A stretch of DNA of 64,000 nucleotides, taken from the NCBI GenBank assembly GCA_910584165.1, contig CAJTZU010000001.1, forward strand, positions 200,321 to 264,320, read 5' to 3'. Of the stretch, positions 57,532-64,000 are shown piece after piece (the stretch's first letter is position 1; each line of letters begins with the position of its first letter). Below the pieces are notes generated by a model. It saw only the letters and a program-made list of their open reading frames with translations, did not search any database and was not told where the DNA came from. This DNA is from an uncultured Bacilli bacterium (GTDB lineage: Bacteria; Bacillota_I; Bacilli_A; RF39; UBA660). The position numbers were made by a program, and so were the translations under genes.

Positions 57532-59103
57532 TTATCCCTTTATTACAACTGTGGCTGAAATTTCCTTACCATCTACTATAATTTTTGCTGTTTTAATACT
57601 TGTTGTTACTTTTGTAGCATTAATTTGTGTTGAAGTTTCATTTAAAACTGTACCATTATAAATGATTTTACTATAAGCTTTAAATGCTGAACCATCTCTT
57701 GTTACAGAAACTCCATAATTTGCTACAGCATCTGTACCTTCTTGATGCTTTGCAGTAAATGTAATTACATATTTATGAGTTTTCTCCTTTACAGTAATAG
57801 TAATGCTTCCTACTTTACCACTGCCATCTTTAGCTGTTGCTGTAATAGTTACAGTTCCTGGAGCTTTAGCAATTACTTTACCTTTTGAATCTACAGTTGC
57901 AACAGCTGGATTACTACTCTTCCATGTAACGCCTTTATTAGAAGCATTATTTGGCTTAATAGTTGCTTTTAATGTTTGATTTCCACCAACTGTCATTGTT
58001 TTATTACCACTAACAGTAATACCTGTTACAGGTTGATTTTTAACAGTTACTTTAACTGTTGCTGTATAACTACCATCATTTGTAGTTACAGTAATAATAG
58101 CAGTTCCTTCTTTCTTACCAGTAATTTTTCCATTTTTATCTACTGTTACAATTGAAGAATCGCTACTCTTCCATGTTAATCCTTTATTTGTCGCGTCACT
58201 TGGTTTTACTGTTGCTTTCAACGTTGTACTTGAACCTGTTGCTAAGTTAAGTGTTGTTTTATCAAAACTTACACCTGTAACAGGAACAATATCTTTTGTT
58301 ACTGTTATAGTTGCTGTTGCTTTGAAACCACCATCTTTTGTAGTTACTGTAATTGTAGCAGTACCAGCTTTAAGAGCTTTAATGTTACCATTTTCATCCA
58401 CTGTTACAATACTATTATCACTACTTTCCCATGTTAATGATTTATCTTTAGCATTGCTTGGCTCTACTGTTGCTATTAAAGTCGCAGTTTCACCTGGCTT
58501 CATTGCTAAAGATGTTTGATTTAATGTTACCCCTGTAACACTAGCATCATTTGTGTCTCCGGCTCTCCATCTTGCTTCTAATTTTATATCACCTGTTACC
58601 TTAGTGTTAAAATCGAATAGCTCACCATTATAATACCAACCATCAAAGATATAACCTTCTTTTGTTGGGTCAGCTGGTTTTGGAATTCTACCGTCTTTAT
58701 CTACCTTTAAAGCTGACACTGGACTACCACCACGTGTATCAAATGTGATGTTAAATTGTTCTTTCTTACCACCACAAGACTTTAACAATAGAATAATGAT
58801 GATTGCTATAACAACAATTGCTATAACAATTTTTGCACCAAAAGATTCACCTTCATCTTCTAAAAGTTCATCCTTTTCTTCTTTTTTAGATTTTTTATCA
58901 TCTTTTGAATTCTCTTTGGAATCTTCTTCTATCTCTTCCAATTCTTCTGAATCCTCGTCATCAAAATCGTCATCTTCTGTTGAATGTTTCTCAGTTTCTT
59001 CGAAATCATCTAATTCCTCATCAGAAATTTCGTCTAAGTCAAGATCTTCATCTAGTTCTTCAACTTCATCTAAGTCAACATCTTTTCTTTTCTTGTCTTC
59101 CAT
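57532..59103 (-). CDS. Type II membrane protein: acidic cytoplasmic N-terminus, TM helix, one Flg_new repeat, three Big_2 (bacterial Ig-like) domains
   Basis: Residues 1-88 are Asp/Glu-rich and the TM helix spans 91-108. The motif GYIFDGWYYNG is present. Three repeats of about 82 aa follow: VTGV...L..G....L.ATV.PS.A..K.LTW.SS...IVTVD..G.I.....GTA.ITVTT.DG. Confidence 0.8.
   Translation of the reverse strand: MEDKKRKDVDLDEVEELDEDLDLDEISDEELDDFEETEKHSTEDDDFDDEDSEELEEIEEDSKENSKDDKKSKKEEKDELLEDEGESFGAKIVIAIVVIAIIIILLLKSCGGKKEQFNITFDTRGGSPVSALKVDKDGRIPKPADPTKEGYIFDGWYYNGELFDFNTKVTGDIKLEARWRAGDTNDASVTGVTLNQTSLAMKPGETATLIATVEPSNAKDKSLTWESSDNSIVTVDENGNIKALKAGTATITVTTKDGGFKATATITVTKDIVPVTGVSFDKTTLNLATGSSTTLKATVKPSDATNKGLTWKSSDSSIVTVDKNGKITGKKEGTAIITVTTNDGSYTATVKVTVKNQPVTGITVSGNKTMTVGGNQTLKATIKPNNASNKGVTWKSSNPAVATVDSKGKVIAKAPGTVTITATAKDGSGKVGSITITVKEKTHKYVITFTAKHQEGTDAVANYGVSVTRDGSAFKAYSKIIYNGTVLNETSTQINATKVTTSIKTAKIIVDGKEISATVVIKG
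57790..58539 (-). repeat. Three tandem coding repeats of about 246 nt (Big_2 domains)
   Basis: Protein residues 189-438 of the 523-aa ORF form three similar units of about 82 aa. Confidence 0.8.
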
Positions 59104-59869: not shown

Positions 59870-61844
<1,975 letters not shown>

Positions 61845-61940
61845 TTATACTATAGATTTACTTTTATTGCTATTCTTTTCTATTCTTCTTTTTTAAATTC
61901 TACTTTTAACTTACTACTGATAATAATATTGTTTAAAAGG

Positions 61941-61974
61941 GCAAATAAGGAAGCAGAATTCTTCTACTTCCTTA
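61941..61974 (-). terminator. Hairpin after the H..Y..E-module gene pair
   Basis: Minus strand: AAGGAAGTAGAA-GAA-TTCTGCTTCCTT (one mismatch) then ATTTGCCCTTTT. It overlaps the stop codon. Coordinates are +/-1 nt. Confidence 0.45.
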
Positions 61975-63108
61975 TTTTTGATATCCATCAAACATATCTA
62001 TTTTCACTTGATAAATTTTATTAGGCTTTTCTTTTTTACTAGCTTCGTACTTTTCCACAAACTTAGGATGACTGCTATCCACGATATCTAACCCCAACTC
62101 TTTAGCCAACAAAACAATTTTTCTTAATGTTTCAAAATCTTCTTTCACTAATCTACCCATAAAGTTTTTAAGTTTTTTTAAAGGAATTCCTATTCCTATG
62201 ATAGACGATAAGGGAATTTGGTCTTTTACTTGCCATTCATCAAACATATCACTAACACGTCTATCAATAACTTTATCAAAAATATTTGGCCGAATATAAT
62301 CAGGAGACAACTTAAATGCTGGAATGCTATCTGAAAGAATAAGACAGAAAGAATCCATAACATAAGAATAAAAAGCATTCATTCTATTTTGTCGATATTC
62401 TCCTTTTGGATATTTTTTGCAAACACTAACGTAGTCTGCTCCATTATATCCATAGAAACTTTCATACCCCAATAATCGTTTACTTTTGATACCTCCAGTA
62501 GTTAAAATGCTTAGTAAATAATATAAAGAATCTCTTATTTTTCCTAGGCCATGATAATAGTATCGACTACAAAAATTACCATCTACTATTCTTTCTAAGG
62601 AATAATCATAAATTGGATGTTCTAAAAATCCTTGTCTTTCATTATAATCTCTTAAACAAATTAGCGAGTCTGTATTTACAATATCTATTTTTAAATCTTT
62701 CACAAAAGTTAATAATTCTTGTAACTGACTTTTATAATAAGGAATTTCTTCCCAATCATAACATTTTAATTGATCCATAGGAAGACCAATCCCCACTATC
62801 ATAGATAGTGGAATACTACCTCTTACCTGATATTCATCATCATATTCACTAAATAATTGTGCAAAAGGTCCTTTTAAATACTTTATATACTTTTCTTTTA
62901 TCATTCGAATTTTAGAAGCTTTTACTTTATCAGAAATAATAAAACAAGTGCATCCTTCTACAAATTCATAAAAGCCTTGTCCATCTCTATAAAGTCGAAT
63001 GGGAGATGTTTCTTTTATTCTCCCAAAAGATAAATTTTCTACTGCTATTTCAACATCTTCTCCATGAAAAATTTTTCCACCAAAGCCATAATAAAAAAAT
63101 TTACTCAT
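61972..63108 (-). CDS. Unknown-function protein with two tandem copies of an H..Y..E (ADP-ribosyltransferase-like?) module
   Basis: I prefer the start at ATG 63108 (MSKFFYYGFGG; GGGAG RBS; ATGAGTAA overlap with the upstream stop). The N-module retains GFYEFV and DDEYQVRGSIPLSMIVGIGLP but lacks the His. The C-module has YYYHGLGK, NAFYSYV and FDEWQVKDQIPLSSIIGIGIP. It is a paralog of the upstream gene. Confidence 0.6.
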   Translation of the reverse strand: MSKFFYYGFGGKIFHGEDVEIAVENLSFGRIKETSPIRLYRDGQGFYEFVEGCTCFIISDKVKASKIRMIKEKYIKYLKGPFAQLFSEYDDEYQVRGSIPLSMIVGIGLPMDQLKCYDWEEIPYYKSQLQELLTFVKDLKIDIVNTDSLICLRDYNERQGFLEHPIYDYSLERIVDGNFCSRYYYHGLGKIRDSLYYLLSILTTGGIKSKRLLGYESFYGYNGADYVSVCKKYPKGEYRQNRMNAFYSYVMDSFCLILSDSIPAFKLSPDYIRPNIFDKVIDRRVSDMFDEWQVKDQIPLSSIIGIGIPLKKLKNFMGRLVKEDFETLRKIVLLAKELGLDIVDSSHPKFVEKYEASKKEKPNKIYQVKIDMFDGYQK

Positions 63109-63715
63109 GAACTTCACTCCCTAAAATTTTTTCTAATTGTATTTGATAAACTTTATTAAAATTCTTACTTTTTTCTTTTTCATATTCTTCTACAAAATTA
63201 GGAAGACTACTATCTACAATATCTAATCCTAATGCTAAAGCAATCTCAATAATTTTTTTAATTTTTTCTTGGCCTTCTTGTATATCTTCCATTAATTCTG
63301 CTAATTGTTGCATAGGAATACCTATCGCAACAATATCTGATAAAGAGACTCTATCTTTCACTTGCCATTCATCAAACATATCACTAAAGCGTGTGTTAGG
63401 TTTTGAATTCATATATCCAAAAAGTTCAAAACGATTCCATTTATCAGCATTTTCAATAATTTCTGGTTTAATAGCCTCCACTGTATCAGAAATAATAAAA
63501 CAAATACTATCTTGAACATATTTATAAAATGCATTATTAGAATGCCTAGAATATTCTTCTTCTGGTTCTTTTGTACAAATACTTACATGGTCTAAACCAT
63601 TAAAACCAATCTTTCTAGCACCAGGCATACATTTAATACCACCTTTTTGAAATATATCTAACGTTTTTTCTAATATATCTCCTCTTTTTACACCATGATA
63701 ATAATACTTACTCAT
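63101..63715 (-). CDS. Unknown-function protein with one copy of the same H..Y..E module
   Basis: I prefer the start at ATG 63715 (MSKYYYHGVKRG; GGGGGA RBS). Motifs are YYYHG (H7), NAFYKYV (Y64), FDEWQVKDRVSLSDIVAIGIP (E116) and the tail LGLDIVDSSLPNFVEEYE. Confidence 0.6.
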   Translation of the reverse strand: MSKYYYHGVKRGDILEKTLDIFQKGGIKCMPGARKIGFNGLDHVSICTKEPEEEYSRHSNNAFYKYVQDSICFIISDTVEAIKPEIIENADKWNRFELFGYMNSKPNTRFSDMFDEWQVKDRVSLSDIVAIGIPMQQLAELMEDIQEGQEKIKKIIEIALALGLDIVDSSLPNFVEEYEKEKSKNFNKVYQIQLEKILGSEVHE

Positions 63716-63783
63716 AATATCCCCCATTATTCGTTCCTTTTTTAAGAAAAAAGTACATACTATCATACCATATTTTCTAAAAT

Positions 63784-64000
63784 TTACAAATTCTGAAAGA
63801 AATTAACTAACTGAGATAACCCCATTTTATGGGAAGCTTTTAAATAAATAATAGAATAATCTTTTAAAGAAATAGTTTTCAAATATTCTTTTAGTTCTTC
63901 AATACTATAAAAATGTGGTTTATTCTTTAAGTAAGAAGTCTCTTCTCCCATTGTTATTACATTTAAATCATCATACTTTTGAATTTCCTGATAAACTTTT
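63784..64000 (-). CDS. 3' end of an unidentified gene (runs off the window end)
   Basis: Own minus-strand translation: ...KVYQEIQKYDDLNVITMGEETSYLKNKPHFYSIEELKEYLKTISLKDYSIIYLKASHKMGLSQLVNFFQNL, with the stop at about 63784. The frame is open to the window edge. Confidence 0.4.
   Translation of the reverse strand, partial: KVYQEIQKYDDLNVITMGEETSYLKNKPHFYSIEELKEYLKTISLKDYSIIYLKASHKMGLSQLVNFFQNL

Follow-up and report, generated by a model that had tools for sequence, protein, structure and literature searches.

We analyzed two adjacent genes, gene A and gene B, of an uncultured Bacilli bacterium (contig CAJTZU010000001.1 of assembly GCA_910584165.1, positions 200,321 to 264,320). The window is this whole stretch of 64,000 nucleotides, and all coordinates given here are positions in it. 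Gene A encodes one copy of a protein module and gene B encodes two. We found that both genes are members of an undescribed protein family with no existing annotation, and that the predicted fold of this family is closest to that of the ADP-ribosyltransferases (ARTs). The two genes and their parts are as follows (gene coordinates include the stop codon, and module boundaries are also given relative to the family hidden Markov model, HMM).

63715..63101, minus strand: gene A, 204 aa, a single module, beginning MSKYYYHG
63108..61972, minus strand: gene B, 378 aa, two modules, beginning MSKFFYYG
62575..63108, minus strand: N-terminal module of gene B (about aa 1-178), in which YYG replaces YHG and the NG.DYVS.C segment is missing
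61975..62574, minus strand: C-terminal module of gene B (about aa 179-378), complete, with YYYHG, GGIK, DYVSVC and SDMFDEWQV (HMM positions 4-198)
63101..63108, minus strand: the A/B junction, ATGAGTAA, with the start codon of B lying over the GAG-TAA end of A
63697-63695, 63589-63587, 63583-63581 and 63373-63368, minus strand: codons of the conserved gene A residues H7, H43, S45 and D115-E116, respectively

By BLASTP, gene A matched residues 181-377 of gene B with 44% identity (E 2e-50), and its residues 60-198 matched residues 43-175 of gene B with 29% identity (E 1e-15). These matches to both parts of gene B indicate three related modules, far beyond chance, and the same three modules were recovered by the family HMM. 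All the sequence features given in the initial annotation are present. The minus strand at 63108..63101 reads C-ATG-AGT-AA, giving an overlap of 8 nt between A and B, and from this start/stop overlap the two genes are predicted to be translationally coupled. The longest open reading frames (ORFs) extend upstream of the MSK starts, to 63766 for A and to a GTG at 63117 for B. We preferred the MSK starts because homologs begin there (40/40 close homologs begin M-S-K/R-Y) and because all internal junctions of related arrays have the form [AG]TGAGTA[AG]. Gene A may alternatively start at 63727 (MGDIMSK), as in a 208-aa database version.

To define the family, we searched annotation resources and large sequence collections. 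No model of Pfam, NCBIfam, PADLOC or PHROGs matched gene A or gene B, and PADLOC and PHROGs gave nothing recurrent on 66 diverse members. A word-indexed search found 47 clusters, none of them named and none with a Pfam domain save in two apparently chimeric fragments. An exhaustive profile search over 1.84 billion representatives (clusters at 50% identity) returned 464 proteins at E<=1e-3, including 251 at E<=1e-10, and nearly all of the best 150 of these 464 matches were standalone proteins of about 200 aa. Among the 120 matches listed from a second profile search, all were unannotated and without a Pfam domain; they comprised standalone proteins of about 200 aa and six two-module proteins, with no fusions except this two-module form. 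The family had been described as unannotated in the initial annotation, and these searches agree. Its hosts among species-representative genomes were uncultured gut Bacilli, metagenome-assembled genomes (MAGs) labelled 'Erysipelotrichaceae' or 'Mollicutes/Tenericutes/Mycoplasmatota', and 'Clostridium sp. CAG' bins. Searches of phage, plasmid and IMG/VR collections turned up no relatives. The isoelectric point varies from 4 to 9.5 across the family, 80% of modules have an acidic C-terminal part, and many members are acidic as a whole, gene A having a net charge of about -10. There is no hydrophobic N-terminal signal in gene B (MSKFFYYGFGG), and the proteins begin at strand 1 of the fold.

We next modeled the gene A protein with AlphaFold2 from a 40-sequence alignment and obtained a confident model (predicted local distance difference test 89.4, predicted template modeling score 0.87). 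In a Foldseek search of the PDB with this model, ranks 1-21 were all ART catalytic domains, from at least six ART families. DarT/DarTG came first (7omu, 7omv, 7omx), and the other ART matches were CteC, pertussis S1, cholera/LT A1, EcPltA, SopF and TreTu; below rank 21 the matches were to unrelated folds. Against the predicted viral structures of BFVD, Foldseek gave eight matches at E<1e-3, down to 4.8e-5, all of them unnamed phage or giant-virus proteins, and a 'putative RNA 2'-phosphotransferase' and a DarT stood lower in the list. Bacillus phage G, for which at least 10 ARTs have been reported (PMC9503650), was the source of several BFVD matches. Sub-threshold matches to 42 Pfam families were seen over the 66 diverse members, and only DarT (PF14487) recurred among them (5 members, best E 0.02). 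In the distant homolog P0100, the DEWHV strand matched positions 123-170 of the 201 positions of the DarT profile.

Conservation was counted over 242 distinct family sequences, in gene A numbering, with an overall identity of 20-45%. His was found at position 7 in 229/242 (95%), followed by Gly or Ala at position 8 in 225/242. Position 39 was Asn in 204/242, and position 43 was aromatic in 239/242 (99%; Tyr in 196, His in 27, Phe in 9 and Trp in 7), gene A itself having His where most members have Tyr. Ser occupied position 45 in 224/242 (93%), Tyr position 55 in 106/242, and Phe or Tyr position 63 in 226/242 (93%). Towards the C terminus, Arg109 was kept in 213/242, Asp115 in 233/242 (96%), Glu116 in 240/242 (99%) and Pro134 in 238/242. 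In the gene A model, His7 lies in the strand formed by residues 5-9, another strand spans residues 43-47, the helix 63-67 contains F63, and Glu116 is the first residue of the strand 116-120. His7, Ser45 and Glu116 thus stand in strands 1, 2 and 5, the same places where ARTs carry their motif residues: a His in strand 1, an aromatic/Ser motif in strand 2 and a Glu that opens strand 5. The residues first proposed for the motif were H7, Y64 and E116. H7 and E116 held, at 95% and 99% in model strands 1 and 5, while Y64 did not, with Tyr in only 62/242 (26%); kept in its place are two strand-2 positions, the aromatic residue 43 and Ser45, together with F/Y63 of the helix that follows.

These residues could also be read as those of a non-ART alpha/beta enzyme, with a hydrolase-type triad of His7, Ser45 (or Cys47) and Asp115/Glu116 and a superficial ART resemblance. 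The conserved His, Ser/Cys and acid could make such a triad, and every ART match is individually non-significant. However, the top PDB matches were 21/21 ARTs from several ART families, DarT was the sole Pfam family matched repeatedly, and no hydrolase family appeared in any search made. Cys47 and Cys72 are invariant in the near clade only and are not kept in distant members. We consider a hydrolase quite improbable. A metal site made of H7, C47 and C72 was rejected, as the cysteines are not kept in the distant members.

We then compared the family with known ART systems. In DarT1, His17 lies in strand 1, a Ser takes the 'Y' position of H-Y-E, Glu152 lies in strand 5, and the aromatics are displaced, to strand 1 and to the helix that links strands 2 and 3 (PMC11543638). 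By this published description, the family resembles DarT1 in its strand-1 His, its strand-2 Ser and its strand-5 Glu, and in having aromatics both in strand 1 and in the helix after strand 2. It also resembles DarT (DarT1/DarT2; PF14487) in being a single-domain cytoplasmic protein of about 200 aa, and DarT is both the nearest structural match and the sole recurrent Pfam match. The family differs from DarT in having no score above the Pfam cut-off, no DarG macrodomain or NADAR partner and no place in the PADLOC models. It has an extra conserved C-terminal helix-strand-helix segment (residues 135-184), and its N39-S45 loop is short, where DarT1 has the R52/D54 loop for nicotinamide adenine dinucleotide (NAD+). 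It also forms tandem coupled arrays and has many acidic members. Membership in DarT/DarTG was rejected because the score was below the gathering cut-off and no DarG-type macrodomain or NADAR neighbor was found.

The motif of Tpt1/KptA (PF01885), hYHGT....L..I...G, aligns with YYYHG....L..I..GG of the family. The family differs in lacking the N-terminal winged-helix domain (its His is residue 7), the invariant Arg/His tetrad and any Pfam match to Tpt1/KptA. Membership was rejected on the hhalign probability of about 2% and the absence of the winged-helix domain. PARP1 carries the motif residues H862, Y896, Y907 and E988 and the sequence NEYIV. The family is similar to PARP and diphtheria toxin in the order and spacing of the motif, with His7, 36 residues, aromatic 43, Tyr55, and Glu116 in a D-E-W/V-Q-V strand. 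It differs in that neither sequence nor profile searches linked it to these proteins, which were also absent from the top structural matches, and in that gene A has His43 rather than Tyr.

Taken together, the evidence that the family has an ART fold of the His-type clade is good but not conclusive. We consider it moderately likely that A and B are cytoplasmic members of an undescribed His-type (H-Y-E / ARTD-like) ART family, with DarT as the nearest known family. That the family is a new one within the H-Y-E clade, neither DarT nor Tpt1, is partly supported. The H-Y-E reading offered in the initial annotation thus stands as regards the fold, which is closest to ARTs, and the kept H and E; it does not stand for Y64, the similarity to Tpt1/KptA was not significant, and the DarT match was below the cut-off.

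Several results weigh against the assignment to the ARTs. The Foldseek scores in the PDB were weak (E 0.045-0.5, probability <=0.60, TM-score <=0.38, and none at E<=1e-3). The DarT match of P0100 scored 12.4 bits, below the Pfam gathering cut-off of 22.5, and the Pfam DarT model matched neither gene A nor gene B. Sequence and profile searches of the PDB with two family alignments found no ART, only chance matches to NVL, VPS4 and COMMD8. The hhalign probability was 1.7% against E. coli KptA and 2.2% against a KptA alignment, the latter over 20 columns that covered the strand-1/helix-1 motif only, with an alignment that was shallow (35 sequences, only matches with at least 58% identity). The acidity of many members fits poorly with a DNA-binding enzyme. 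In addition, if the genes of the arrays described below encoded up to seven DarT-like toxins, these would be hard for a cell to tolerate in the absence of an antitoxin.

The N-terminal module of gene B is a conserved degenerate copy that has neither the His nor the strand-2 motif. It aligns only to family HMM positions 65-193 (62991-62632), lacks the GGIK..NG.DYVS.C segment and keeps CFIISD, DDEYQV and GIGLP. This module is itself conserved in 7 two-module orthologs, with Y6-Y7-G8 (no His) and E92 invariant and with C53, C55 and GIGLP also conserved, which bears out the original description of a degenerate copy. A change of the strand-1 His was also seen in a single-module array gene of a related contig (L009:5602-6231, the same as L022 gene 1), which has Tyr in its place (MSKYYYYG) and keeps N39, S45, C47 and D115-E116.

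The binary ART toxins C2I, iota Ia and VIP2 have two ART-like domains, of which the N-terminal copy is inactive. Gene B resembles them in architecture only, in that its complete module comes after a degenerate one that lacks the NAD+-binding His. It differs in that these toxins belong to another ART clade, in lacking a secretion signal and any partner for binding or translocation (the neighbors are murF, tgt and a metallophosphoesterase gene), and in that its duplication is recent and lies inside an array of single-module genes. By analogy with the two-domain ART toxins, the degenerate module may serve as an adaptor or regulator.

The dead module would also fit proteins that are inert ART-fold scaffolds (pseudoenzymes), which form hetero-oligomers and have a binding or regulatory role. 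This would explain the coupling and the LGLDIVDSS..FVE.YE segment. Besides the conservation of the dead module, it is favored by the 8-nt overlap at all within-array junctions found, which suggests stoichiometric co-production, by the array gene with His replaced by Tyr, and by the strong conservation of the C-terminal part (D168, F174 and E179). However, the near-invariance of His7, Ser45, Asp115 and Glu116 over the 242 sequences, at 20-45% identity, is the pattern of an active site, and most genomes are single-copy, so that hetero-oligomers cannot be the general mode. We regard scaffolds as improbable.

To place the A-B locus in context, we examined the closest relatives, which are MAGs labelled 'uncultured Bacilli'; several of them come from mouse- and rabbit-gut sample sets. 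They carry 1-7 family genes between murF and tgt-metallophosphoesterase. The L002 array has six single-module genes and a terminal two-module gene, the L015 array has five genes, the L016 array has two two-module genes, the L019-L021 arrays have three genes each, and L023 and L024 have one gene each. A start-motif scan of the related arrays found that all internal junctions have the sequence [AG]TGAGTA[AG] with a purine-rich stretch before it, and this uniformity indicates that translational coupling is a constant feature of the array. The L002 orthologs of genes A and B are gene 2 (69% identity) and gene 7 (54% across the full protein and 61% in the C-terminal module), respectively. The initial annotation described two coupled paralogs; both are present and coupled, but this understates a locus that is one state of a 1-7-gene array.

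Several database proteins were hybrids of array genes. We divided them at the conserved SDMFDEWQV block and compared the two halves separately, with the following closest matches.

P0002: N-terminal half from gene 2 (100%), C-terminal half from gene 6 (93%)
P0011: N-terminal half from gene 2 (100%), C-terminal half from gene 3 (100%)
P0030: N-terminal half from gene 4 (99%), C-terminal half from gene 2 (100%)
P0038 (L015 gene 3): N-terminal half from gene 4 (92%), C-terminal half from gene 5 (84%)

The sequences of these hybrids fit unequal recombination that alters the copy number and joins halves of paralogs. Some hybrids were seen on several contigs or on long contigs, but hybrid genes may also be assembly chimeras. 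The A-B locus would be one state of a coupled array of 1-7 genes that expands, contracts and reshuffles through recombination at SDMFDEWQV.

Three further observations concern individual arrays. Array gene 5 is split into two ORFs (137 and 54 aa) at L001:9816-10424 and is intact (202 aa) in otherwise identical contigs (L002:9816-10424); the split gene may be a frameshifted, decaying copy or a sequencing error. In a rabbit-gut MAG, a gene with a BRO-N domain, which is typical of phage-derived genes, is inserted between the array and tgt (L020:11794-12621). The MAG CASRZP01 (L013 and L017) contains a two-gene array of the window type and, on a separate contig, the 3' part of an array of the seven-gene type followed by tgt, which suggests that this bin is a mix of strains.

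Diversified tandem paralogs that recombine at a conserved block recall orphan toxin/immunity arrays. Together with the dead module in gene B, this would be in line with a toxin/immunity locus, either of the classical DarTG-like or of the polymorphic type, where certain members of the array neutralize others. However, all array genes belong to one family and have intact motifs, with no unrelated small genes interleaved. Neither a delivery domain nor a signal sequence is present, as the proteins begin at strand 1, and no PADLOC model matched. The ancestral state is a single copy amid housekeeping genes. We consider such a locus very improbable.

We compared genes A and B with their L002 orthologs and obtained ratios of nonsynonymous to synonymous substitution rates (dN/dS) of 0.26 for gene A, 0.28 for gene B, 0.23 for the metallophosphoesterase gene and 0.05 for tgt. 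The values of 0.26-0.28 indicate that A and B are under purifying selection and functional. Rapid evolution of the two genes was rejected, since their dN/dS is near that of the neighboring metallophosphoesterase gene. Elevated values were seen only in segment 135-160 (0.58) and in the tail (1.43), the latter probably raised by recombination. Over 37 array modules, the most variable parts were residues 11-20, 51-60, 81-108 and 141-150 and the tail, and the best conserved were the motif-bearing strands and the 161-179 segment, with D168, F174 and E179 strongly conserved in the C-terminal part. The variable stretch 81-108 lies directly before Glu116, where ARTs have the ADP-ribosylating turn-turn (ARTT) loop for target recognition.

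If the proteins are active ARTs, the cleft that binds NAD+ would lie between strand 1 (Y-H7-G), strand 2 (aromatic 43-x-S45) and the helix after strand 2 (F/Y63). The nicotinamide-ribose bond would be activated by D115-E116, where strand 5 begins, with transfer of ADP-ribose to a target, and the variable stretches at 11-20, 51-60, 81-108 and 141-150 would probably set target specificity.

We also analyzed the immediate surroundings of the pair, which include the following features.

61931..61977, minus strand (stem 61977-61943): terminator-like hairpin with a 16-bp stem and the stop codon of B inside, then GCCCUUUUAAAC
63762..63789, minus strand: candidate promoter of the A-B pair, TTGTAA, 16 nt, TG-TATGAT; a consensus match only, and tentative
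61820..60708, minus strand: tgt, downstream of B; orthologs in related contigs carry PF01702
60715..59870, minus strand: metallophosphoesterase gene, after tgt; orthologs in related contigs carry PF00149

The sequence 3' of the hairpin stem is GCCCUUUU. The hairpin has a folding free energy of -23.6 kcal/mol (z -5.81), and 0/200 shuffles were as stable; a terminator consensus scan did not pick it up at 61977..61943. The candidate promoter is about 47 nt upstream of the gene A start, within the end of murF, and promoter-like consensus sites in the region were no commoner than in the shuffled expectation. An Rfam scan of the 64-kb window gave no family at gathering score. Almost all long ORFs of the window (48/49 of those with 200 aa or more) are encoded by the minus strand. 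One of its genes (57532-59103, minus strand) encodes a 523-aa protein whose long N-terminal region is highly acidic and which has a single hydrophobic segment and repeats of an Ig-like unit; its orthologs in related contigs have Flg_new and Big_2 domains and stand in tandem with larger paralogs.

Outside the lineage of the window, most genomes are single-copy and the neighbors vary: gpmA-SPFH-glucosaminidase and aspS/lysS-like genes occupy opposite flanks of the gene, or its neighbor is gmk, tyrS or glmS. As other clades have other neighbors, the link to tgt is synteny of one lineage and not a functional association, and tgt linkage was rejected as a functional clue. The neighbors of the family genes included no conserved macrodomain, NADAR or other ADP-ribose-processing gene by Pfam matches. 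When E. coli YmdB and YbiA were used as phmmer queries against every ORF of the window and of 60 loci, the sole match was a NADAR ORF 7 kb from a distant homolog, and PADLOC gave no match. Of what had been said earlier about the surroundings, the pair's own hairpin and the lack of a macrodomain or antitoxin-like partner are upheld by these results; the hint at a tRNA target, drawn from the adjacency of tgt, is withdrawn, as this adjacency is confined to one lineage.

The NADAR ORF is a NADAR+DHH fusion (L008:15789-16556), downstream of the P0100 gene, and is the sole NADAR or macrodomain match near any member. The P0100 gene itself shares 32 nt with the beginning of a UDG-family (PF03167) gene (L008:8001-9177). 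A 237-aa orphan with an ART-like N-terminal motif (..FYHFTNR.N..SI...GLIPS..) lies between two class-II aminoacyl-tRNA synthetase genes at L042:12560-13270. It also occurs at L031, L033, L040, L044, L047, L051 and L052. The orphan gene is the first or second gene downstream of the family gene, which is single-copy, and its protein has no Pfam match and no significant profile similarity to the gene A/B family.

Arr is a small cytoplasmic His-type rifampin ADP-ribosyltransferase that needs no antitoxin, and the family is likewise small, cytoplasmic, His-type and without an antitoxin. It differs from Arr in that Arr was not among the top 50 structural matches and that there was no Pfam match and no resistance context. 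The proteins could have an ART-like fold and be NAD+ glycohydrolases or Arr-like small-molecule transferases, and the array would be a set of detoxifying enzymes with differing pockets, harmless to the cell and needing no antidote. This is favored by the absence of a conserved macrodomain, NADAR or other antidote beside the genes, by their stable position amid housekeeping genes and their absence from the phage, plasmid and IMG/VR searches, by the acidity of many members, and by variability centered on the loops around the presumed pocket. However, Arr is outside the top 50 structural matches, DarT, which is nearest by sequence and structure, acts on DNA, and the neighborhood gives no sign of antibiotic resistance or NAD+ signaling. 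We consider this unlikely. As for the target class, a nucleic acid or a protein seems to us slightly more probable than a small molecule. The missing antidote and the acidic character of many members speak against an enzyme that attacks the DNA of its own cell as DarT does; possible targets are small molecules, proteins and foreign or specific nucleic acids.

A wider interpretation, which we put forward tentatively and hold to be rather doubtful, is that the murF-tgt locus is a fixed, antidote-free, self-reshuffling battery of DarT-like enzymes, which would act as a new kind of diversifying system for conflict or immunity, or as a regulatory system with several targets. In such a battery, paralogs would swap their N-terminal (NAD+ and target-recognition) and C-terminal halves to give new specificities, and the fusion with the dead module would be a regulator.

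If the proteins are active, they would form a new, unannotated ART family of 464 representative clusters, confined to poorly known uncultured gut Bacilli. Its organization would be unusual, with no reversing enzyme, a stable housekeeping site and, in one lineage, a coupled array with half-swapping and a conserved pseudo-enzyme fusion, and we know of no described counterpart to it among the ART families familiar to us or met in these searches. This raises the question of how cells tolerate several DarT-like enzymes and what these modify. The family would be a new one for Pfam and NCBIfam, and even without activity it would be a well-delimited domain of unknown function.

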